From positions 1-64,000 of the IMG/VR virus record IMGVR_UViG_3300031537_000001: DNA of 64,000 bases, one strand, 5' to 3'. Both the position numbers and the translations under genes were made by a program. The stretch comes from a virus. The notes beneath the pieces are model-generated. The model searched no databases and had not been told where the DNA came from. It saw nothing but the letters and a program-made list of their open reading frames with translations. Of this stretch, positions 17,985 to 40,710 are shown one piece after another (within the stretch, counting starts at the first letter, position 1; the number at the start of each line of letters is the position of its first letter).

Positions 17985-18456
17985 TAATCATCAAACTTAT
18001 GACATCGTTTTTCATATTCCTCTTTCCTACTCAATGCAATTTTGAATTGCTATTTGAAGTCTTACATTTTCATAGCTTTGTAGTATGATTTTAGAAATCT
18101 AAGTTTTAATTTTGTAGTTTTTATAAAGAAATTTAAACTGAAATGTTATTTTATAGCTTTGTTTTTCTTCGGATTGCTATTAAATCAGCTATGATTTGTA
18201 TTATCAACGCGCACGGCGCGACTCGGCGAAGTTACCGATTTTTTTTGAGAAAACAGTTCAAAATAAATATGATTTTTGTCATGTTTTTGAAAATAATTAT
18301 AATTTATAGCGAAGTAAAAGTGCGTTAACCTCAAAAAATATTATAATAGTAGAGGTAAAACAGGTAACATTCTGAGATAATATCAACAAGTTTTAAATCG
18401 CTGCACTTAGCTATATTTATTATTGAATTTAAAATTAACTAAAATTAAGATTATAA

Positions 18457-18683
18457 TGAAGATAGTAGAAATTACAAAAGAAAATGACATATATACTGTA
18501 AAACAAGTTCCTAATTGGCTTGAAAGATTATTTGGAATAAAAGAAAAGGTAGAAAAATTCAAAAAAGATAATTGGCATAAATATATGTTTGGAGGTGGAC
18601 TCTATTACAACCAGAAAGGTGAGGAGATTGGCAATGGTAATAAGGTTGGGCTTGCATTAGATAACTACGAACGCAGTTTTTAA
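18457..18683 (+). CDS. Hypothetical protein
   Basis: ATG preceded by the AACTAAAATT leader. Confidence 0.55.
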
Positions 18684-18809
18684 TTATAACTAAAATTAAG
18701 ATATTATGTGGAAAACAGTAATTAATGACAAAATAGTAACAGGTACTTATGAAAAACTTGTGAAATTAACTTTAGGTTTAATTGGTAATAAAATTGAAAG
18801 GGTATAGAA

Positions 18810-19028
18810 ATGGATAGAAGTGAACATTTACAATGGTGTAAAGATAGAGCAAATGAATATGTTGATATGGGAGATATGCAGCAAGCATTTGCGAGTTTTC
18901 AAAGTGATATGAGCAAGCACCCTGAAACTGCCAATCACATGGCGTTAGAAATGGGGACAATGCTACTTATATCTGGTAATTTATCAAATGCTTATCAAAT
19001 GAGAAAATGGATTAATGGTTTTAATTAG
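18810..19028 (+). CDS. Hypothetical phage protein
   Basis: 72 aa (HLQWCKDRA..SDMSKHPET). Confidence 0.65.
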   Translation: MDRSEHLQWCKDRANEYVDMGDMQQAFASFQSDMSKHPETANHMALEMGTMLLISGNLSNAYQMRKWINGFN

Positions 19029-19235
19029 TCTAATTTAGTCTGTTTTGTACTCAACAAAACTATCCAGTAAGCTACTGGCCTTGTTGATGGATTCTTAGAG
19101 TAAACGAATCCTGTCTTTTTAAGATATTATTATACAAACCCTCAGAGTTGAAATACTCATGGTGATATCGTTAAATCAATTTAATTGATTACTAATTGTA
19201 TAGATGATTTTTAAACTAACTAAAAATTTGCAAAA

Positions 19236-19478
19236 ATGAAAACAATTAAAATCAACAACTCAAAAGAAGCATCAAAATATAATAAAGAATGCTGGAAAAG
19301 AACAAACGCTAATAAAACAGGCAGCACTTATATGCCTGTAAAGAAAGAATTTATTTCCTTTTTCAAACATAATAACATTGAGATTAATGTAGATGAAATT
19401 CAATCATGTACAATGGTTTCTCAATTATTGGAAGCGGAAATAATAACGAAAACAGAAAAATATACACTAATATTTTAG
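19236..19478 (+). CDS. Hypothetical protein
   Basis: 80-aa ORF with AACTAA leader. Confidence 0.55.
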   Translation: MKTIKINNSKEASKYNKECWKRTNANKTGSTYMPVKKEFISFFKHNNIEINVDEIQSCTMVSQLLEAEIITKTEKYTLIF

Positions 19479-19899
19479 TCTATAAAGTTTCTGCAAATTC
19501 TTTGTAGGACACGCCCCGGCTTTGAGACAAAGCCGGGGTTTCTGGGTGAAAACAATAAAAATTTGCAAAATGAAAAAAGTACAGCTTATATCAAAGATAG
19601 ACCAGGGCCACTATAAAGCTGGCGATGTAATGAGAACCATAAAAGTAAAAAGTTCTTATAATTTACAGGGTTTGTTCCTGGTTTTTAGTAGATTTGAATT
19701 TATTATAAATAAAATATCATGAAAACAATAAAAACAATCGAAAACGGCAAGCTAAAACTTGTCAAAATCAAAAAGACAAAAAAGGGTTACATTAAAAAAT
19801 AAAGTATCATGAAAAAAGAAATAAAAAAGCTTATAAGGTCTTTAAGAAAGGCTAAAAAAGCAATTAGAATCCGTTACGAAACTAATTATAAATAAAGAC

Positions 19900-20421
19900 A
19901 TGAAAAATCAAAAAGAAATAATTATTCAAGTACCTGAAGGGTATGAGATAGATGAAGAAAAAAGTACATTTGAAAAAATAGTATTTAAAGAAGTTAAAGA
20001 AGTGTTAACTTATAAAGATGTAGCAATAAGTTTATTCAAAGATAAAACAGTAGCTACTATAGCTGGTAAAAGTAAAGTTATTACTTGGGAAGTAGAAGAA
20101 GAGGAGGAAGATATAATGGAACTCACAAATTCTATAACAGAAGAACAACTAGAATCAATATTAGCTCTTAACAAACTATGTAATGTAGCCAAATTTTTAA
20201 ATGGTTATTGGTTGCCTGAAAGAAAAAGAGGAGGTAATGATAAATGGTTTCATTATATTAATTATGAATCATTCGAAAGTTCTGAATCAACATTAAAAAT
20301 AAGTAAAACCAACATTGTACAATATAGTATAGTGTATTTTAAATCTAAAAAATTAGCAGAACAAGCTATTGAGATTTTGGGAGAAGAAGAGATAAGAAAA
20401 GCTTTAACTTTAAATCATTGA
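19900..20421 (+). CDS. Hypothetical Bacteroidota-phage protein
   Basis: VPEGYEIDEEKSTFEKIVFK...YFKSKKLAEQAIEILG. Confidence 0.65.
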   Translation: MKNQKEIIIQVPEGYEIDEEKSTFEKIVFKEVKEVLTYKDVAISLFKDKTVATIAGKSKVITWEVEEEEEDIMELTNSITEEQLESILALNKLCNVAKFLNGYWLPERKRGGNDKWFHYINYESFESSESTLKISKTNIVQYSIVYFKSKKLAEQAIEILGEEEIRKALTLNH

Positions 20422-20424
20422 TTT

Positions 20425-20802
20425 ATGAAAAATTTAGAAATTTATGAAGGTTTACATAACGTAGAGTTAAGAAACTTTATTGGAAGAACTTTAACTAGAG
20501 CAAATTGGAAATTCCCTATAAAACAGATTGAAGCTCTTGAAATAGCTATTGAATTAGAACGTAATTCTAATAATAATATTTGGCAGATAACTATTTTAAA
20601 TTCAAAAATAGATATAGTAAAGGCTCAGGATAGACTAAAGTATTCTGAGACTATGTATGCTCTTGGTCTAATAATGAAAATGTTTGGTTATGAAGAATTT
20701 GATATACCTGATGATATTGAAGATTATAATCCTGAAACATATGTACCTTTTATAGGAACTCAAAAGGAATTTAAAGATTTGCTTAAAAAACATCAAAAAT
20801 AA
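20425..20802 (+). CDS. Hypothetical protein
   Basis: 125-aa ORF. Confidence 0.6.
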   Translation: MKNLEIYEGLHNVELRNFIGRTLTRANWKFPIKQIEALEIAIELERNSNNNIWQITILNSKIDIVKAQDRLKYSETMYALGLIMKMFGYEEFDIPDDIEDYNPETYVPFIGTQKEFKDLLKKHQK

Positions 20803-20808
20803 GTAAGT

Positions 20809-21492
20809 ATGAATTATAAAATTATAGCAGATTTAGATATATTAAATAATTTCATTAAATGGCTTCCAGAATTAGAGTATAATGAAACTTTTTATGTTTG
20901 TCTATTTGCTTGTAAAAAATATTGTCAACATTTGGTGCATATTGCATCAGATAAAGGACAGATGAAACGATTTACATCTAAAAAAGATTATCTTATTCAA
21001 AAGATTAAACAATTAGAATGTGAAGTTGGTAATTATACTGTAAAAGGTGTAATAGCTCCTCAAGAAAGCTTAGTATTATACATTAATCCTAATCCGAGGA
21101 ATGTAGAAAAAGCTGCTAAAAATTCTTTAATACATTTAGCTCATTTAATAACAAAACCTTATAGTGGATGGAATCCTCAAGCAGAAGTTATTTCTGAAAT
21201 TCAAAAAGCTAAAAGTAGAACTATATATTTTGATTTAGATTTTGATGGTGTTGAAATTGACTTTATAAAATTTCATTTATTGGAAGATATAACTAAAGAA
21301 GCCTGTCATTTTCTTAAAACAAGAGGAGGTTTTCATTTATTAATAGAACCAAGTAAAATAGAAAAAAAATATAAAAAAACTTGGTATAAAAAGGTTATAT
21401 CTTTACCTGGAATAGATATTAAAGGAGATAATATGATTCCTGTACCAGGATGTTATCAAGGTAGTTTTATACCTCGTTTTATAAAAACATGA
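20809..21492 (+). CDS. AEP/PrimPol-fold protein
   Basis: IYFDLDFD (DxD) and TRGGFHLL (motif II His). Confidence 0.6.
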
Positions 21493-21539
21493 TAAAAGTC
21501 ATGTTTTTTAATAAGTTAAATCTTTATATTTAAAAACTT

Positions 21540-21603
21540 AATAAGTTCATTGATATTATTTCAAAAGTTTGTTTGGACGTGGGTTCGATTCCCATCAGCT
21601 CCA
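21540..21603 (+). ncRNA. ssrA: Permuted tmRNA, acceptor piece (3' part of the tRNA-like domain)
   Basis: GGAC-GTGGG-TTCGATT-CCCAT-CAGCTCC-A; upstream bases pair with the coding piece (P2). Confidence 0.88.
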
Positions 21604-21821
21604 CATATGGGGTGTTTTTGGTTGATTTTATATTTAAAGCTAAACGAATACTAGTATAAGTTTAGGAAAGGGTATAAATGAAGTGAAAATTCGTTGTAAC
21701 ATGTACCAATAGTGCGAACACCTCGCCTGCATCGATTTCGCCAATTGATAATGAATGTTGATCTGAATTAACAGGGATTTTGAGGAAGTTACGGTACTTC
21801 CAACATTCATTTTTAAAACAT

Positions 21822-21967
21822 GGGGCTGATTTTGGTTTTGACAGCAAAGTAATAGAAGTAAAGGAGAGCTTATTAGCTGTGTAAACGGCAACATAATTAA
21901 TTTATTTGATAGGAAACTAGCAATGGTTGCCTAACAACGAGACTGAGGGAAGCGAAAGTTCCCTCAC
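21822..21967 (+). ncRNA. ssrA: Permuted tmRNA, coding piece, with tag frame 21887-21934 GNIINLFDRKLAMVA*
   Basis: GGGGCTGATTTTGGTTTTGAC 5' end; TAAAC-GGC resume context; tag ends in Ala-stop; terminal hairpin TGAGGGAA/TTCCCTCA. Confidence 0.88.
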
Positions 21968-21969
21968 AT

Positions 21970-22042
21970 TGAGAAATAACTCAGTTGGTAGAGTGACACG
22001 CTGTTAACGTGTAAGTCGTAGGTTCGAGTCCTACTTTCTCAG
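21970..22042 (+). tRNA. tRNA-Asn(GTT)
   Basis: TGAGAAA/TTTCTCA acceptor; ACACG-CTGTTAA-CGTGT anticodon arm; GTAGG-TTCGAGT-CCTAC T arm; CCA not encoded. Confidence 0.92.
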
Positions 22043-22319
22043 CTATAATAAACTTCTATTCAAGTAATTATGATGTAGAAACTCTCAAAAGGGACCAATG
22101 AAGTAATTATTAAATACATGTTAGAATAGGAGTTTATTTTCTTACAAAAACTAACTAAAAATATACAATCATGAGAGAATTTTTAATAGTATTGGCAATC
22201 TATTATATGTATAGATTGTTTAAATGGTTTAATAAAAAATGTAAACCAGAAGATATTGGTATTATGGATTTAAAGGATTAGATTCCATTATTGAAGATTA
22301 ATAATTAAAACTGATTACT

Positions 22320-22556
22320 ATGGGAAAACTAATGGATAGACTACAAAAACAATTAAAAAATCCTGAAACTAAACAAGATGCTGAAGATTGTATTAAAATA
22401 TATAATTATCTTGAAGAACAATCTGGGGGACATGTATGGTCTTCGCAATGGGGACCGTTGACGAATGTAAAATTCAAAGGTTTCCCAAGTGATGAAAGGA
22501 ATTATAGTCTTAATAATATCGGTAAATTAGTATTAAAAGGATTAGAAAATAATTAA
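22320..22556 (+). CDS. Hypothetical protein
   Basis: 78-aa ORF. Confidence 0.6.
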   Translation: MGKLMDRLQKQLKNPETKQDAEDCIKIYNYLEEQSGGHVWSSQWGPLTNVKFKGFPSDERNYSLNNIGKLVLKGLENN

Positions 22557-22567
22557 AATTGATTATT

Positions 22568-23005
22568 ATGAATATAGATAGATCCAATAAAAACTGGAAT
22601 ACCAAAATATCTGATGAAGATATTTTAAATGAAGAGTTCTCAATAGGTTATTTATTACAAACTAATCTACATAATCCATTATTAGCTGAATTAAAAGATA
22701 AAGTTTTATCTACTTATAATGTAACTGCAAAATTTGAATGGTTAGGTTATAACGGTGCTTCTATTTATTGTAATGGTCAAAAATTAGTTTATAGAAAAGA
22801 TAAATTTTCAAACTTTAGTATAGGTAAAAATGTTCAAGTAATAGAACACAATTTATCTACTAACGGAGGTGGTTCAAATAATTATCCATCCATAGCGTAT
22901 AAAGGTGCAAGTATAATATTGCAATTTATTTCTTATGGATTGCCTTATGTAAATAAAACAAACGGATGGAATATAAATATAATTAGTTTAGATAAAATTG
23001 AATAA
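22568..23005 (+). CDS. Hypothetical protein
   Basis: About 145-aa ORF. Confidence 0.6.
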   Translation: MNIDRSNKNWNTKISDEDILNEEFSIGYLLQTNLHNPLLAELKDKVLSTYNVTAKFEWLGYNGASIYCNGQKLVYRKDKFSNFSIGKNVQVIEHNLSTNGGGSNNYPSIAYKGASIILQFISYGLPYVNKTNGWNINIISLDKIE

Positions 23006-24003
23006 AAACATTAAATCCTAAACTTGAAGATTAAACAAGTTAAACTCTCATCCAATTTGCGGGTTAAATATGTAGAGGTGCTCTTAGTTATGTACAGACG
23101 ACGGTGAGACTGAAAAGAAGTGATACAGTTAGAGATAGCAACCCTATGAGAGTTTATTTAAAATATTATCAAAAACCAGTAATGGAAGTTTGTAATTAAT
23201 GCCATCTGAAATATGGTGAAATTCGTTACGGCTAGATTACAAACTATTTTGATAATATAAGTGAATATTTGTATTAACAATCCTACTTCCAAAAGGGATA
23301 TTTGGGACTTGGAGAGAACAACAACCTATTGAAAAATATAGTTATAGTGGTTTATACAATAGTTAATATAATTATCCCTCACTTATTTTACATAATTTTG
23401 TATAAAAATATATTTGTTATGAAATATAAATCAATTAAAGTGTGTTGTAATATTATTAAAACTACAACATCTTCGAGAGAAAAATTAATTGCTCAATTTT
23501 TACTATTAAGATTGATTAATAAAGGTATACGTAAAGACATTAATTAAAGAGTTGTTGTACAACTATCCAGTAAGTTCCTGGCCAATTTAACTGTCAATGA
23601 CTGTGTTAGGTTGAGAAATTTAACCTCACCAACTACTTAGGTATTGGTACAGATGAAAACGAGGTGAATGGAGTTAGCTGTTGAGACTCCATAGAATAAA
23701 GTATCTAAGTCAATTTATTTGATATGATAACAATATAATACAAACAAGGTGGCCCGTGAAACTTTGAAACATAAAAGGACCGGAAAATGTTCCTCTATCT
23801 GTTTGTATTGGCAGCTAAATAAGTTTGTGGTTTATCCAACTTTTAATGGGAAGGGATCTACGAAACAATTATTTAGCATTCAAATATGAAAGTATTTGTC
23901 TTATAATTTTATTATTAATTGTGGGATTCATCAAGCGAGTTTCCTTAATAAAATTAATTGTGCAATCCTGGGTTGATAACCAGGAAAATATAAATTCAAA
24001 GTT

Positions 24004-24207
24004 ATGATTAAAAATAAAGATTTAGCAATAGAAAAACTTCCGTCAAGAATAAGATATTATTTATTAGATTGGAAAGATTCACATATGGATGAATATGTTT
24101 ATAAATATGGTGAAATAAGTTTATGTAATTTAACATTAAAGCAATTAAAAGGTTTATATACTTATGTATGTATAAAAGATGCTGAATTATTAATAGGGAT
24201 AAAATAA
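24004..24207 (+). CDS. Hypothetical protein
   Basis: 67-aa ORF between structured RNA elements. Confidence 0.5.
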   Translation: MIKNKDLAIEKLPSRIRYYLLDWKDSHMDEYVYKYGEISLCNLTLKQLKGLYTYVCIKDAELLIGIK

Positions 24208-24666
24208 AGATTTGGTAACTAAATAATTAAAGATGACATTCATAATTATTTAGTCAATATTGTTGTTTAATATGTAAAATAAAAAGTATGCTTACAACCC
24301 TTATTTGGTAATGTTGAAATAGTATATAGATTATTAAACAACTTTATTGTGTTTTGATTAATACGAAAGTATAATAGCAGGATGAAGTGATAGTACGTAA
24401 TGTTCAAATCTATCATTAATCAAAACTTATCAAATCTTTTTAAAATATAAAATCTTTCTGCTTATGAAGCATTTAATATGCAGCCAATTAAGTTTGTGAA
24501 CCGTTAGTCGTAGATTTGGCAAATCAGTTTGTGGATTAAGATAGATTTACTATGTAATGCATAGTCCAATTGTAGTAGCTAAAATGCGAATAGGCGGTTA
24601 AGTAACTATTACCTTGCCAGGTACAGAAGGATTTTTTTTATTAATATTCAACTAAATTTAAATATT

Positions 24667-24759
24667 ATGATTTTAGATGTTTTTAATAGGATGAAAAGAG
24701 CTGGTGCTATTGCATTAGTAATTGTTGGAGCAGTTGTGTTAGCAATTGTTTTACTTTAA
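24667..24759 (+). CDS. 30-aa single-TM microprotein (MILDVFNRMKRAGAIALVIVGAVVLAIVLL)
   Basis: Read from the sequence; AACTAAA leader; terminator follows. Confidence 0.55.
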   Translation: MILDVFNRMKRAGAIALVIVGAVVLAIVLL

Positions 24760-24765
24760 TAGTAT

Positions 24766-24806
24766 AACAAAACTACTTAATTAAATTTTTAAGTAGTTTT
24801 GTTTTT
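24766..24806 (+). terminator. Terminator hairpin
   Basis: AACAAAACTACTTAA...TTAAGTAGTTTTGTT plus T-rich tail. Confidence 0.6.
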
Positions 24807-24978
24807 AATTTTGTTTATATGAAGGACGGATTATATAAGGTTACAACCAAATATTTATGTGCTGGATTTGTAATTAAAAATAATAAAATAGTAAAATGTG
24901 CTCCAATACTTAGAAACAAAATAAAGTATTGGGTTACAATTGCTAGATTTATATGTGAAACTAACTAAAATAAAATAT

Positions 24979-25227
24979 ATGGAAACAATTGAAGAAATTG
25001 CAAGAAAACATGCTAATTTAAAAAAAGGATTTGATATAGCAGAAGAAGAATACTATAATTCAACAGGAATGAATGCTTATTATTCTTTTATAGAAGGAGC
25101 TAAGTGGAAAGAAGAGCAAGATTCTGAAGAATTTGAATGTATACGGTCTTTTATAAGAAGCGAACATTTAACTGCTAAATTAGAATTATATTCTAAAGAT
25201 TGGTTTAATAAAAATAAAAAGGAATGA
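24979..25227 (+). CDS. Hypothetical phage protein (METIEE...FIEGAKW)
   Basis: ATG at 24979 with AACTAA leader. Confidence 0.6.
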   Translation: METIEEIARKHANLKKGFDIAEEEYYNSTGMNAYYSFIEGAKWKEEQDSEEFECIRSFIRSEHLTAKLELYSKDWFNKNKKE

Positions 25228-25673
25228 AAGAATCAACAGAAAGTATAAAGCCTAATGATATTGCACCGAAACTGGTGTTTTATTCATTGAGATGTCTCTT
25301 TAGTCTTATTAATAGAAAGAATAAAGACAAAAATCCGAAAGATTATCCTGGTAGCGGTTCTATTAAATTAGTAGATTAGTATGAGGAATCTTAAACTGCG
25401 ATTATATGTAATTTGGAAAGAAATAGTGCTTTTCTTTAGACCAAAATTACGTAAAGAAATAAAAGAAATGGTTGATAAATTTAAAAAGGATTAATATGGC
25501 TAAGAAATTAAATACTAAAGAGTACTCGGAAGATTTATCTGATAGAATAAAAGCTCAGTTGAAAAAGGCAAATAAAGTTACAAATAAATTCAATAAACCT
25601 GTATCTAAACGTAGTCATTTTTTGTCTTTTGGATTTCATGACAGGATAAAAGATGAAAAAGAGTAACAAAATA

Positions 25674-25748
25674 CCCCTTCACTCTAAGGAAACACAGTAG
25701 TGGGGCTATGCAAGAAACATAGGATAGGTTCAATTCCTATTGAAGGGG
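25674..25748 (+). ncRNA. tRNA-like element with an atypical D and anticodon region
   Basis: CCCCTTCA/TGAAGGGG acceptor-like stem stacked on an ATAGG-TTCAATT-CCTAT T arm. Confidence 0.55.
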
Positions 25749-25776
25749 CTTTAATAAATTAACTAAATAACTAATT

Positions 25777-26052
25777 ATGCCATTAAGAATTAAATTTGTA
25801 AAGGATATCGAGAAAGATTATAAAGATGTTCATCATAGTATTGATATTGTAGCTTTAATTGAAGGTATCTTAACTACTTTAGATGATTCTGAATATATAG
25901 AATTGTTAAAAGGTATATTGAAACGAAAAGAATTAAGTTCTAATAAATTAATGCAATTAGTTGCATATTTTTGCAATGAATTACGAAATAGGAAATTAAA
26001 TCCTGCTCAAAAGAATGCATTAAAATCTTATTTTAAGGAGTTTGATTTGTAA
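25777..26052 (+). CDS. Hypothetical protein
   Basis: 91-aa ORF. Confidence 0.55.
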   Translation: MPLRIKFVKDIEKDYKDVHHSIDIVALIEGILTTLDDSEYIELLKGILKRKELSSNKLMQLVAYFCNELRNRKLNPAQKNALKSYFKEFDL

Positions 26053-26400: not shown

Positions 26401-26500
26401 AAGGAGATTAGTTTCTCCTTTTTACTCGACTAAGCGAGTATAAATAGGTGTTAAGCTTAGTGCGTTGAAAAGGTCACATTAATAATTAATACATATAAAA

Positions 26501-29009: not shown

Positions 29010-29831
29010 ATGAAAAACTATAATGTAATTGGACAAGATCAGTTAATTTCTGAAGTAAAAAGGATATTTGATATTTTCAAAAGTTCAGATTGTGCAATTA
29101 GGCCCCATTTCATTTTAACAGGAGCTTCTGGTACAGGGAAATCTTTTACTATTAGGAATATGACTGTGAGCTATGATCTGAATTTTATTGAAATTAATGC
29201 TGCCCAATTGACAAAAGAAGGCACTTCAGGTAATAGTCTTGCAAAAGCTTTATCTGGACTACTTCAAATTAGCAATAAACCTACTATAGTATTTGTCGAT
29301 GAATTTGATAAATTATTCGTAGTAGGTAATGTTAATAGTGATATTGCGGATGAACATACTACAGCAGTTCAAAATGAATTTTTGAAAATTCTTGAATCTC
29401 CGTATACTTCTATATTTGGGGACTATGGTAAGTATATTAATGTACCAGTATCAAATACATTGTTTATATTTTCAGGAGCCTTTAATGGAGAGGAAGATTT
29501 AACTTTAGATAGGCTAAGAGAGTTGGGTATGAAAACTGAATTCTTAGGAAGAGTAGGTTTGATTTACAATACTAAGCCTTTAGCTTTAGAAGATTTATTT
29601 TCTATTTTGGAAAATTCAGAATTACTTACAAATTATTTGCAATTATTTGAAGATTCTGACCGTGAACAGGTGATTTATAGCATTAAAGCTTATCTACAGA
29701 AAACTTACGAATTCAATACTCTTGGAGCCAGATTGATTAATACATTAATCCATCAATATTTTATCAAAGGTGGTAAATTAACTAAAGAAGAGGTTAAATC
29801 AATATCTTTTCAGAAAAAATTAAAGTTGTAA
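29010..29831 (+). CDS. ClpX-like AAA+ ATPase (truncated)
   Basis: GASGTGKS, INAAQLTKEG, IVFVDEFDK, VQNEFLKILE, NTLFIFSGAF, GMKTEFLGR and LGARL follow the ClpX motif order. Confidence 0.8.
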   Translation: MKNYNVIGQDQLISEVKRIFDIFKSSDCAIRPHFILTGASGTGKSFTIRNMTVSYDLNFIEINAAQLTKEGTSGNSLAKALSGLLQISNKPTIVFVDEFDKLFVVGNVNSDIADEHTTAVQNEFLKILESPYTSIFGDYGKYINVPVSNTLFIFSGAFNGEEDLTLDRLRELGMKTEFLGRVGLIYNTKPLALEDLFSILENSELLTNYLQLFEDSDREQVIYSIKAYLQKTYEFNTLGARLINTLIHQYFIKGGKLTKEEVKSISFQKKLKL

Positions 29832-38935: not shown

Positions 38936-39682
38936 ATGATAAGATTAGGGATTAATGAAAATGTAAAAATAGGTTCAGGTACAGAAGTAACTGATAAAGG
39001 ATTAACATTTAACTTCGTTAGAGGTACGAGCTCAACTTTTGATGCTTTTGTAAATGATGGAGATATAGAAGATAGTATAAATATCTTCTTACCAACTATA
39101 TTCGTATTAGAGTTTGGTAAAACTACTCCAAGGGATCCAAAAGCAATCGCAAAAGATGTAAAGCGTAATGTATCCTATATGAAAAGTATTTTAGGTATCT
39201 ATCTTAAATTAGAAGAAGTAGATAAATACCTTGGGGGAGGAGCTTTAGCAAAACTTTTTGCTAAATACGGAGCCACAGCAGAAAATTTAGATTCTAAATG
39301 GACTGATGAAAAATTTGTTAATGGATTTATGATGGATTGTTCTAAAGCTTTTGTTAAAGCTATAGCAGACCATAAATTAACAACCAGACCTGAATTATTT
39401 AGGATTAAACTTCCCAGACAATCAAAAAACAATTTCGCTGCTTTACCATTGAGTATTTATACACCTTGGATTGAAAGTATGGATGTTGAAAAATCAGCTA
39501 TTGAATGGTCTGATTACGAGATTCAACATAAATTGGATAGAATGATTGATATTGCTACTGATCCTACTGCTCCGGCTGAAGTAAAAACTGCTGAAACATT
39601 GTTTGGAGATAATGGACAAAATACTACTCCAGCTAACGATGTTACTATAAATGAAATTTTTCCTGAACCGAAAAAGGAATAA
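38936..39682 (+). CDS. Putative single-stranded DNA-binding protein
   Basis: Follows the Sak4-like ATPase; acidic, low-complexity C-tail. Confidence 0.45.
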   Translation: MIRLGINENVKIGSGTEVTDKGLTFNFVRGTSSTFDAFVNDGDIEDSINIFLPTIFVLEFGKTTPRDPKAIAKDVKRNVSYMKSILGIYLKLEEVDKYLGGGALAKLFAKYGATAENLDSKWTDEKFVNGFMMDCSKAFVKAIADHKLTTRPELFRIKLPRQSKNNFAALPLSIYTPWIESMDVEKSAIEWSDYEIQHKLDRMIDIATDPTAPAEVKTAETLFGDNGQNTTPANDVTINEIFPEPKKE

Positions 39683-39684
39683 TC

Positions 39685-40710
39685 ATGTGTTTACTGGAAG
39701 ACTATTTGATTGAAAATAGCTTATCAGTAGAATCTATACATAAATATGTAGATGATTATTCAATATTTTCATTTTACATAGGAAAGGAGTTAGAGATAAA
39801 TAAAATCTACTCCTCTCCTTTAAGAGATTCAGATGAGCATCCTTCTTTTGCTTTATATGAAGCCAGAGATGGTAGTATCATGTTTAAAGATCATGGCCGA
39901 AATTTAAAAGGTGGTGTACTAAAATTTGTTAGACATTTGTTATCTGAGGATTGGGATAATCTTATTCCATTTCAAGATGTATTGCATCAAATCAATATTG
40001 ATTTTGATATAGGTCTTGCAGGAACTCCGAAAACATTTAAACCACGAGCAAAAATAATAAAAAGTTACAGTAAAAAACCAAAAACCAAAATAGAAATCGT
40101 ATCTAAAAGGTATAACTCATCATTTTTAGATTACTTTACTGGAAAATATGATATTACATCAGACATATTAAAAATGTATAATGTATATAATGTAGCTATG
40201 GCAAAGTTTAATCTATTTCTAGTGTATCAAAAAACTCTTTGTATCGCATATAAAATAGGTAAATATTATAAATTATGTATGCCATTTAATCCAAAAGGAG
40301 AAAGATTTAGAACTGATTTTCCTCCTAATTATGTAGAAGGATTCTTACAATTAAAGTATAAGTTACCATTTGTAATTATTACTAAAGCTATGAAGGAAGT
40401 AATGTTTTTTAGGAAACATTTCGATTGGGATTCTGTTGCAGGAAAGAGCGAAAATACTATGATACCAGATTTTATAATGAAAAAGTTATTTATCCGCTAT
40501 AAGTGCGTTTTTATTTGGTTGGATAGAGATCAGGGTGGAATCGAAGCTACAAAAGCTTATTTAGATAAATACCCTGGTCTTATCTCTATTAACTATCCTA
40601 CTTCAATAAAAGAAAAGGATGTTACTGATAGATATTTTTACATGAAAACTTTAAATAAAGAAAAAGAAAGCTTAAAAGAAATAGAAAATGTCGTTATTGG
40701 ATATAAGTGA
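39685..40710 (+). CDS. DNA primase (crAss-type DnaG/TOPRIM)
   Basis: SPLRD.DEHPSF...FKDHG N-terminus; IITKAMKE and WLDRD.GG TOPRIM; KDVTD. Confidence 0.85.
   Translation: MCLLEDYLIENSLSVESIHKYVDDYSIFSFYIGKELEINKIYSSPLRDSDEHPSFALYEARDGSIMFKDHGRNLKGGVLKFVRHLLSEDWDNLIPFQDVLHQINIDFDIGLAGTPKTFKPRAKIIKSYSKKPKTKIEIVSKRYNSSFLDYFTGKYDITSDILKMYNVYNVAMAKFNLFLVYQKTLCIAYKIGKYYKLCMPFNPKGERFRTDFPPNYVEGFLQLKYKLPFVIITKAMKEVMFFRKHFDWDSVAGKSENTMIPDFIMKKLFIRYKCVFIWLDRDQGGIEATKAYLDKYPGLISINYPTSIKEKDVTDRYFYMKTLNKEKESLKEIENVVIGYK

Follow-up and report, generated by a model that had tools for sequence, protein, structure and literature searches.

A permuted, two-piece tmRNA gene of reduced size, probably functional, in a marine crAss-like phage

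The DNA analysed here, hereafter the window, comprises 64,000 nt (positions 1 to 64,000) of the 93,292-bp IMG/VR virus record IMGVR_UViG_3300031537_000001; among the public sequencing runs, one DNA run, from a salt-marsh metagenome and probably the source sample, is listed as containing the stretch, and no RNA run is listed. At 21540-21967 on the plus strand lies a circularly permuted gene for transfer-messenger RNA (tmRNA, ssrA), identified both by reading of the sequence and by its match to the Rfam model for permuted tmRNAs, RF04321 (tmRNA_permuted). The 3' half of the tRNA-like domain, T arm included, stands upstream of the 5' half, with a spacer between them, so that the product would consist of an acceptor piece and a coding piece (Table 1). 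A search with a permuted model had been named as a check in the original prediction, which was made from the letters of the window alone; the match covers 21545-21934 and scores 52.0 bits (gathering threshold 47; E = 2.8e-7 over the whole 64-kb window). In this alignment the consensus register is kept by the T arm and the two acceptor strands, by the A-rich run that precedes the resume codon and by the tag's end. The one-piece model RF00023 recognises solely the 3' half.

Table 1. The permuted tmRNA gene and its immediate surroundings, in window coordinates.
Feature	Position	Strand	Content or basis
Acceptor piece	21540-21603	+	P2c, P2b and P2a 3' strands, T arm, acceptor 3' strand, discriminator A; sequence, RF04321, cofold, family alignment
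P2c cross-piece helix	21540-21548 with 21866-21874	+	sequence, cofold
P2b cross-piece helix	21556-21562 with 21855-21861	+	sequence, cofold
P2a cross-piece helix	21568-21573 with 21843-21848	+	sequence, cofold
T arm and acceptor 3' strand block	21575-21602	+	sequence
T arm	21579-21595	+	within acceptor piece
Acceptor 3' strand	21596-21602	+	within acceptor piece
Discriminator A	21603	+	invariant in 42 family genes
Intervening segment (spacer)	21604-21821	+	218 nt; GCCA-loop hairpin, long hairpin, T run
Hairpin with GCCA-bearing loop	21731-21749	+	spacer fold
Long hairpin, then T run	21750-21811, T run to 21816	+	spacer fold
Coding piece	21822-21967	+	acceptor 5' strand, Bacteroidota-type GGTTTTGAC-AGC block, P2a, P2b and P2c 5' strands, tag frame, closing hairpin
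Acceptor 5' strand	21822-21828	+	start of coding piece
Tag reading frame	21887-21934	+	GGC (Gly) resume codon, 15 codons, TAA stop; RF04321 register
Post-tag hairpin (helix-5 equivalent)	21945-21965	+	7-8 bp around GCGAAAG loop; sequence, cofold
tRNA-Asn (GTT)	21970-22043	+	ARAGORN; Rfam tRNA 71.6 bits; begins 2 nt after coding piece

The elements that had been predicted are all present in the sequence, and the two pieces cofold in the way proposed. The acceptor stem has 7 bp, with the G3:U70 pair and an A as discriminator, and both this stem and the three P2 helices pair perfectly when G-U is allowed. Cofolding of the two pieces yields -61.9 kcal/mol vs -45.9 +/- 4.6 for shuffled sequences (z = -3.5), and in the minimum-energy structure the post-tag hairpin forms along with the acceptor stem and each of the three P2 helices. 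The CCA end is not encoded, the bases that follow the discriminator being C-A-T.

This gene is one of a family. We collected relatives by scanning the viral contigs of IMG/VR with short conserved motifs and requiring matching acceptor and T-stem pairing. The 5' motif occurs 98 times in viral contigs (48 permuted, 32 one-piece and 18 unresolved loci, 4 of the last being called permuted by ARAGORN), so that at least 48 permuted genes of the window's build, 48 of the 80 resolved viral loci, are found in phage contigs, 42 of them unique. The build that characterises the family, and that the window gene has, comprises a Bacteroidota-type 5' block and a resume codon placed about 60-66 nt from the 5' end, with the acceptor piece beginning at P2c and the coding piece running to the post-tag hairpin. 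The window gene aligns end to end with the 41 other unique genes, and on the resulting alignment (A1, 42 genes with the window included) we counted the window's structure. GGAC, the T loop, the discriminator A and the C that follows it are invariant; conservation extends to the stop codon and to the resume codon with its preceding A-rich stretch; and G3:U70 is present in 42 of 42 genes. Overall, 77% of the alignment cells pair; shuffles give 66%, and displacing the structure by 1-3 columns gives about 52%. The covariation score of 0.324 (0.147 in shuffles) was reached by none of 500 shuffles. Across the family, 4 of the 5 T-stem pairs have changed on both sides, as have 8 of 9 pairs in P2c, which pairs in 70% of cells, and all 7 pairs of the post-tag hairpin (64% of cells, in a rough alignment); P2a pairs in 86% of cells.

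One relative, L008, is a 37.8-kb crAss-like contig whose terminase (TerL) is 56% identical to that of the window phage and which carries the same gene within a tRNA cluster, where ARAGORN calls it a permuted tmRNA. Between it and the window there are compensatory changes in the acceptor stem, in four T-stem pairs, in P2 and in the post-tag hairpin. Conservation of the cross-piece pairing in relatives, named beforehand as a refutation test, is thus seen as compensatory change both in this contig and in the 42-gene alignment. The window gene is a real and probably functional two-piece mini tmRNA.

The carriers of the family are dozens of phage contigs, mostly non-crAss: a crAss-type capsid gene was absent from the 42 other carriers searched, 14 of them genomes at least 90% complete, and the largest protein of one carrier matches only Bacteroides phages. 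The exact 21-nt 5' end hit, among viral contigs, a single unrelated GC-rich fragment (L007); a 16-nt motif of the coding piece gave six chance matches, none with a tRNA or tmRNA; two lineage-specific patterns had no match in metagenome contigs; and, against 50,697 phage records, blastn queries with the window region, a typical family gene or the 5' end returned just tRNA, T-arm or chance matches.

From which kind of tmRNA does the family derive? We scanned one genome per GTDB species for the 5' block (four G, N-T-G, a short linker and TGGTTTTGAC-AGC) and obtained at least 120 loci; of the 80 assigned to a taxon, nearly all come from Bacteroidota. Among the matches listed, 106 bacterial loci with the 5' motif could be resolved, and of these all are one-piece and 0 are permuted, their tags being of the GENNYALAA type. 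In each of its halves the window's tRNA-like domain has 86-88% similarity to the Bacteroidota tmRNAs that share the motif, and in these, as in the window, the CCA is unencoded and the trailer begins with C. Judged by sequence, the tRNA-like domain of the window is of the Bacteroidota type; with the Gly resume codon, this bears out the match to Bacteroidota that had been read from the GGC codon.

It had further been proposed that the gene represents an independent permutation in a Bacteroidota phage. One part of this proposal holds: we think it fairly likely, if unproven, that the permutation arose among the tmRNAs of Bacteroidota phages, separately from the three classical two-piece lineages. 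The other part does not, since the dozens of mostly non-crAss carriers make the permutation a family-wide trait that did not arise in the window phage. The competing origin, capture of the family from a proteobacterial beta-type two-piece tmRNA with later adaptation to Bacteroidota hosts, strikes us as unlikely. The beta model is indeed the best of the subtypes (alpha, beta and cyanobacterial models RF01849, RF01850 and RF01851: 12, 22.7 and 16 bits), and the beta-type phage genes L025, L028 and L031 resemble the family in how the acceptor piece begins and have the same motif ahead of the T arm. However, none of the three scores comes near its cut-off (50, 84 and 70 bits), and the alignments cover the tRNA-like domain alone; the shared stretch also aligns with a consensus block of the one-piece model RF00023, and is therefore not beta-specific and no link between the permutations; and the 5' half carries the Bacteroidota signature, from which that of the beta-type genes differs. 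In the same direction point the resume codon and tag start, which are of the Gly type as in Bacteroidota, the family members with short, host-like tags, the member L200 with a far longer stretch before its resume codon, and the one-piece phage tmRNAs with related tags. The latter include, most tellingly, the gene of Cellulophaga phage phi14:2, and also those at L207 2972-3294 and L219 3762-4088, of about 325 nt, whose tag endings resemble those of the permuted family; L207, L219, L158, L193, L216 and other phage contigs carry one-piece tmRNAs with a Bacteroidota-type 5' end and unusual tags of 16-28 residues. These are the reasons for which we favour a separate origin.

The build of the RNA is minimal. 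Its pieces of 64 and 146 nt, which agree with the roughly 210 nt originally estimated, make about 213 nt with the CCA added, and host tmRNAs have about 395 nt. In the coding piece, 12 nt separate P2 from the resume codon, which lies at +65 from the 5' end; 10 nt lie between the stop codon and the post-tag hairpin, at which the piece ends, and 2 nt between that hairpin and tRNA-Asn. With the outermost P2 strand, in addition, forming the beginning of the acceptor piece, no space is left for any of the four usual pseudoknots, and the earlier remark that no clear pseudoknots are present holds. One-piece tmRNA is anchored to the ribosome through its pseudoknot 2 and helix 5 (PMC8012679).

Around the resume codon we observed a 5-bp hairpin with a GUAA loop (window 21876-21889), the codon being its 3' strand. 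The hairpin is kept in L008 (about 993-1006) through a compensatory change from G-C to A-U, and a 3-5-bp stem of this kind is possible in many family members; it might take the place of the absent pseudoknot 1 or act as a gate on the resume codon.

The tag ends in KLAMVA and is one of 16 unique family tags of 15 residues. Across these 16, the third codon positions are the most variable (entropy 1.30 vs 0.97 and 0.82), and codon differences are synonymous in 22% of cases in frame vs 8-9% out of frame. The tag is thus under selection as a peptide. The family's tags form a class unlike the host tag: Gly, then usually Lys, a hydrophobic middle and a V-A or A-A ending. In E. coli, tags that end in the manner of L-V-A act as efficient degrons for ClpXP, and by analogy the ending of the phage tag is plausible as a degradation signal.

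Selection on the peptide argues against a pure decoy, that is, an inhibitor in which the tRNA-like domain alone acts, soaking up or blocking host SmpB, AlaRS, RNase R or a defence nuclease, and the tag is never translated. Such molecules have a precedent, since expression in E. coli of a tag-less, tRNA-like tmRNA fragment of mycobacteriophage DS6A inhibits the host tmRNA (cited in PMC11915505), and an RNA without any pseudoknot from a phage without its own SmpB would fit the part. Against this, the tag frame is open at fixed length in 16 unique family genes, synonymous changes being 2.5 times commoner in frame than out, and the resume codon, the A-rich stretch preceding it and the stop codon have been conserved. 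We regard the decoy as improbable, and return to a tmRNA that would be translated.

Both ends of such an RNA become free only if the spacer is excised or the pieces are transcribed separately. The spacers of the family range from 16 to 266 nt, that of the window being among the longest, together with the one of L008 (242 nt). In the window it holds no credible reading frame in the list of open reading frames and no tRNA, the stability of its fold is overall unremarkable (z = -0.9), and a scan of the region for promoters and terminators found nothing above chance. A minus-strand frame of 84 codons (21640-21894) was rejected as a gene, its similarity to L008 being confined to the overlap with the conserved RNA.

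One element of the spacer recurs. The hairpin with GCCA in its loop is found in 8 of the 42 family spacers, vs 2.4 expected from shuffles (maximum 7 in 200 shuffles); besides the window the carriers are L008, L159, L194, L197, L200, L206 and L220, the stems varying among members. In phi14:2 such a hairpin immediately follows the 3' end of the one-piece tmRNA (L252, about 1972-1990). Within the 30 nt after host tmRNA genes, GCCA itself is uncommon (8 of 106). The hairpin may be a signal for 3'-end processing or for protein binding.

Two further observations concern the spacer. Directly after the acceptor piece, the spacers of L029, L032, L034, L179, L194, L197, L206, L218 and L234 (alignment columns 201-235) share a conserved motif of about 30 nt that can be drawn as a small H-type pseudoknot of two interleaved 4-bp stems, the second with compensatory changes; it is absent from the window and had no Rfam match in the members scanned. 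In the window itself, a G-rich run 4 nt downstream offers the acceptor 3' strand another pairing partner (21598-21630), and with the T run that comes next this can be read as a weak terminator-like hairpin; L008 has no counterpart of this pairing.

Transfer RNA genes accompany the family closely. In L008 a tRNA-Gln stands directly before the acceptor piece and a tRNA-Ala directly after the coding piece, a tRNA gene thus following the coding piece within 2-10 nt both there and in the window; complete tRNA genes (Glu, Met and Ala) lie inside the spacers of L181, L199 and L221; and the spacers of the gut crAss-like phages cr10_1 and cr50_1 contain tRNA-like T-arm fragments. These positions, beside the tmRNA or, in three members, in the spacer, would fit a release of the pieces by tRNA-processing enzymes. 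In the window, to judge from its position, the tRNA-Asn is a probable 3' processing signal, a cut by RNase P at its 5' end freeing the coding piece. Many relatives have a terminator-like arrangement of post-tag hairpin and T run.

The capsid, portal and terminase proteins of the window match phage families. Because its major capsid protein shares 47% identity with that of phi14:2, the closest isolate, and 42-45% with those of gut crAss-like phages, the window phage is, by sequence, crAss-like and nearest Steigviridae, as the original prediction had it in calling the phage crAss-like. The order of the genes near the tmRNA (window 18000-26000) differs from that in the close relatives L008 and L009: the homologue of the open reading frame at 19900-20421 lies downstream of a 227-residue gene in both relatives, and the tmRNA is located at a different place in L008. 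We therefore take this to be a shuffled accessory region, and the tmRNA gene is a mobile accessory within it. In the same rightward block of genes as the tmRNA, at 26424-26478 (+), there is a full-length Pistol self-cleaving ribozyme (Rfam RF02679, 55.2 bits vs 34.5). Further on, 29010-29831 (+) encodes a 273-residue AAA+ ATPase (Pfam AAA, 46 bits, plain domain); it was considered as a partner in the tag pathway and rejected, there being no homologue in 32 other records (31 tmRNA carriers and the complete close relative G003) and no linkage.

Taken together, these data make it likely that the window carries a functional two-piece tmRNA gene of a crAss-like phage that infects a Bacteroidota host, and we propose the following course of events. 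The region would be transcribed rightward and both pieces released by the host's tRNA-processing enzymes: RNase P would cut both at G21822 and where the downstream tRNA-Asn begins, trimming after A21603 would fall to a 3' endonuclease or exonuclease, and the CCA-adding enzyme would finish that end. The acceptor piece of 64 nt and the coding piece of about 146 nt would then be held together by the acceptor stem and some 22 base pairs of P2. Host AlaRS would charge the RNA with alanine by way of G3:U70 and A73, and host SmpB and EF-Tu would bring it to stalled ribosomes, on which translation would resume at GGC and add a 15-residue tag of the phage type, ending in -MVA and likely to serve as a degradation signal. 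The benefit to the phage would lie in ribosomes kept free while host and phage mRNAs are being cut. The roles named in the original prediction, a counter to host defence nucleases or a changed fate of tagged proteins, would at this stage be guesses.

Several points weigh against this reading: (i) The RF04321 score is only 5 bits above the threshold and includes a large bias term. (ii) ARAGORN, which had been named as a check on the native and the de-permuted sequence, calls no tmRNA in either, nor in three versions with a shortened spacer. At 5 nt, the linker that joins the acceptor strand to the GG of the D-loop analogue is longer in the window than anywhere else in the family, and this may be why the copy is rejected. 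(iii) P2b pairs in just 50% of the alignment cells, its register shifting between members. (iv) Acceptor and T-stem pairing were used in selecting the family, so that their near-perfect pairing is partly due to construction and only P2 and the hairpin are independent evidence; cofold z-scores for P2 across the family (median -0.86) lack the strength to discriminate in such AT-rich RNA. (v) The phage record encodes no SmpB, and therefore host SmpB, AlaRS and EF-Tu would have to be used. (vi) The complete, 93.5-kb genome of G003 has no tmRNA of either form, and the gene is therefore dispensable. (vii) With all pseudoknots absent, function on the ribosome is a prediction.

Some of these points would also suit a window copy that is decaying although the family is functional. 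To the rejection by ARAGORN in every layout, the long linker, the marginal score and the close relative that has lost the gene or never had it, one may add the spacer of 218 nt and a T stem closed by G-U. However, every position invariant in the 42-gene alignment is intact in the window, the acceptor stem and the three P2 helices pair without a fault when G-U is allowed, the tag frame is open, of family length and ends like that of phi14:2, and the spacer of L008 is likewise long, so that we hold decay to be about as improbable as the decoy. Finally, although tmRNA genes are common integration sites and the unrelated L007 is a fragment of that kind, the suggestion that the locus is integration debris, with host tmRNA gene ends duplicated and left behind by a temperate element, is highly improbable and effectively refuted by the family data, as both halves are present, co-oriented and, beyond the host-like part, complementary over some 22 additional base pairs, are accompanied by a phage-specific tag frame, and recur in this arrangement in at least 48 phage contigs vs 0 of 106 bacterial loci among the matches listed.

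The original prediction had left room for the form being unreported, and in this respect the claim of novelty for the window gene fails, as the family is already annotated in gut crAss-like phages. Two-piece tmRNAs have been published from phages, namely the OM43 phage Melnitz and pelagimyophages (PMC9004378), and Supplementary Table 1 of that paper, from 2022, lists ten crAss-like phages with a 'Permuted' tmRNA (cr115_1, cr114_1, cr10_1, cr50_1, cr273_1, cr272_1, cr131_1, cr130_1, cr125_1 and cr124_1), with phi14:2 entered as 'linear'. In RefSeq, positions 39374-39869 of NC_055868.1 (cr50_1) are annotated 'transfer-messenger RNA, SsrA'. The tmRNA database paper contains, without comment, 48 permuted genes in Bacteroidota assemblies, and mentions one permuted gene with a tRNA-Ala in its spacer. 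In the literature searched, the family is nowhere described as a lineage, nor is the absence of pseudoknots from it noted.

What the window adds is a marine, Steigviridae-like carrier beside a cultured relative, phi14:2, that has the one-piece form and the same six-residue tag end. As ARAGORN misses the gene and the permuted model of Rfam 15 finds it, the genomes of crAss-like and other Bacteroidota phages may under-report tmRNA. Selection maintains a tmRNA of about 210 nt without space for pseudoknots in many phages, which bears on what pseudoknots are for; and the tag, being unlike the host's, allows a test between added ribosome-rescue capacity alone and a redirection of the tagged proteins. 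Both the annotation and the biology concern the family as a whole and are not specific to the window. More tentatively, the family might represent a fourth origin of two-piece tmRNA, confined to phages and working on the ribosome without pseudoknots, with a conserved 15-residue tag that is a phage-specific signal and not a copy of the host degron. If true, the two-piece gene of the window and the one-piece gene of phi14:2 would form a natural matched pair, in a culturable system, for the effects of permutation and pseudoknot loss on trans-translation.

Among the systems already known, four groups are closest to the window gene: (i) The gut crAss-like (Suoliviridae) genes of cr50_1, cr10_1 and cr125_1 score 60.3, 49.6 and 46.3 bits with RF04321 and are all three called permuted by ARAGORN. 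They share with the window the permuted order, a short coding piece in which P2 is followed straight away by a Gly resume codon, and, immediately after that piece, a gene for a tRNA or something tRNA-like. In contrast to the window, they belong to another crAss family and come from the human gut, and their Gly-start tags have 13-14 residues and an unrelated middle; the D-loop-analogue motif differs from the window's in two of the three, and the genes are too dissimilar to the window for detection by blastn. (ii) In Cellulophaga phage phi14:2, a marine crAss-like phage of the Steigviridae with a Bacteroidota host and the isolate whose capsid protein is most similar, the tmRNA has G3:U70, the Gly resume codon and the KLAMVA tag end in common with the window, whereas the gene is a one-piece gene of 470 nt in standard order (KC821624.1 4031-4500, L252 1501-1970), with a long stretch from the 5' end to the tag and a more divergent tRNA-like domain; with RF00023 it scores 46 bits, slightly below the cut-off. 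We note that it is unannotated in GenBank, where three tiny hypothetical coding sequences (gp012-gp014) are drawn over it. (iii) The two-piece tmRNAs of the alpha, beta and cyanobacterial groups (RF01849, RF01850 and RF01851, merged as RF04321) are likewise permuted, with pieces joined by the acceptor stem and P2, tRNA-type processing of the ends is expected, and phage-borne copies are known; the window gene departs from them in its Bacteroidota-type tRNA-like domain, in having no space for pseudoknots, in being about half the size and in its class of tag. (iv) With the one-piece tmRNA of Bacteroidota (RF00023) the window gene shares the 5' signature, the similarity of both domain halves, the Gly resume codon and the unencoded CCA, but the host genes are of one piece, with a resume codon near position 95, which leaves space for pseudoknot 1, and GENNYALAA-type tags of 9 residues.

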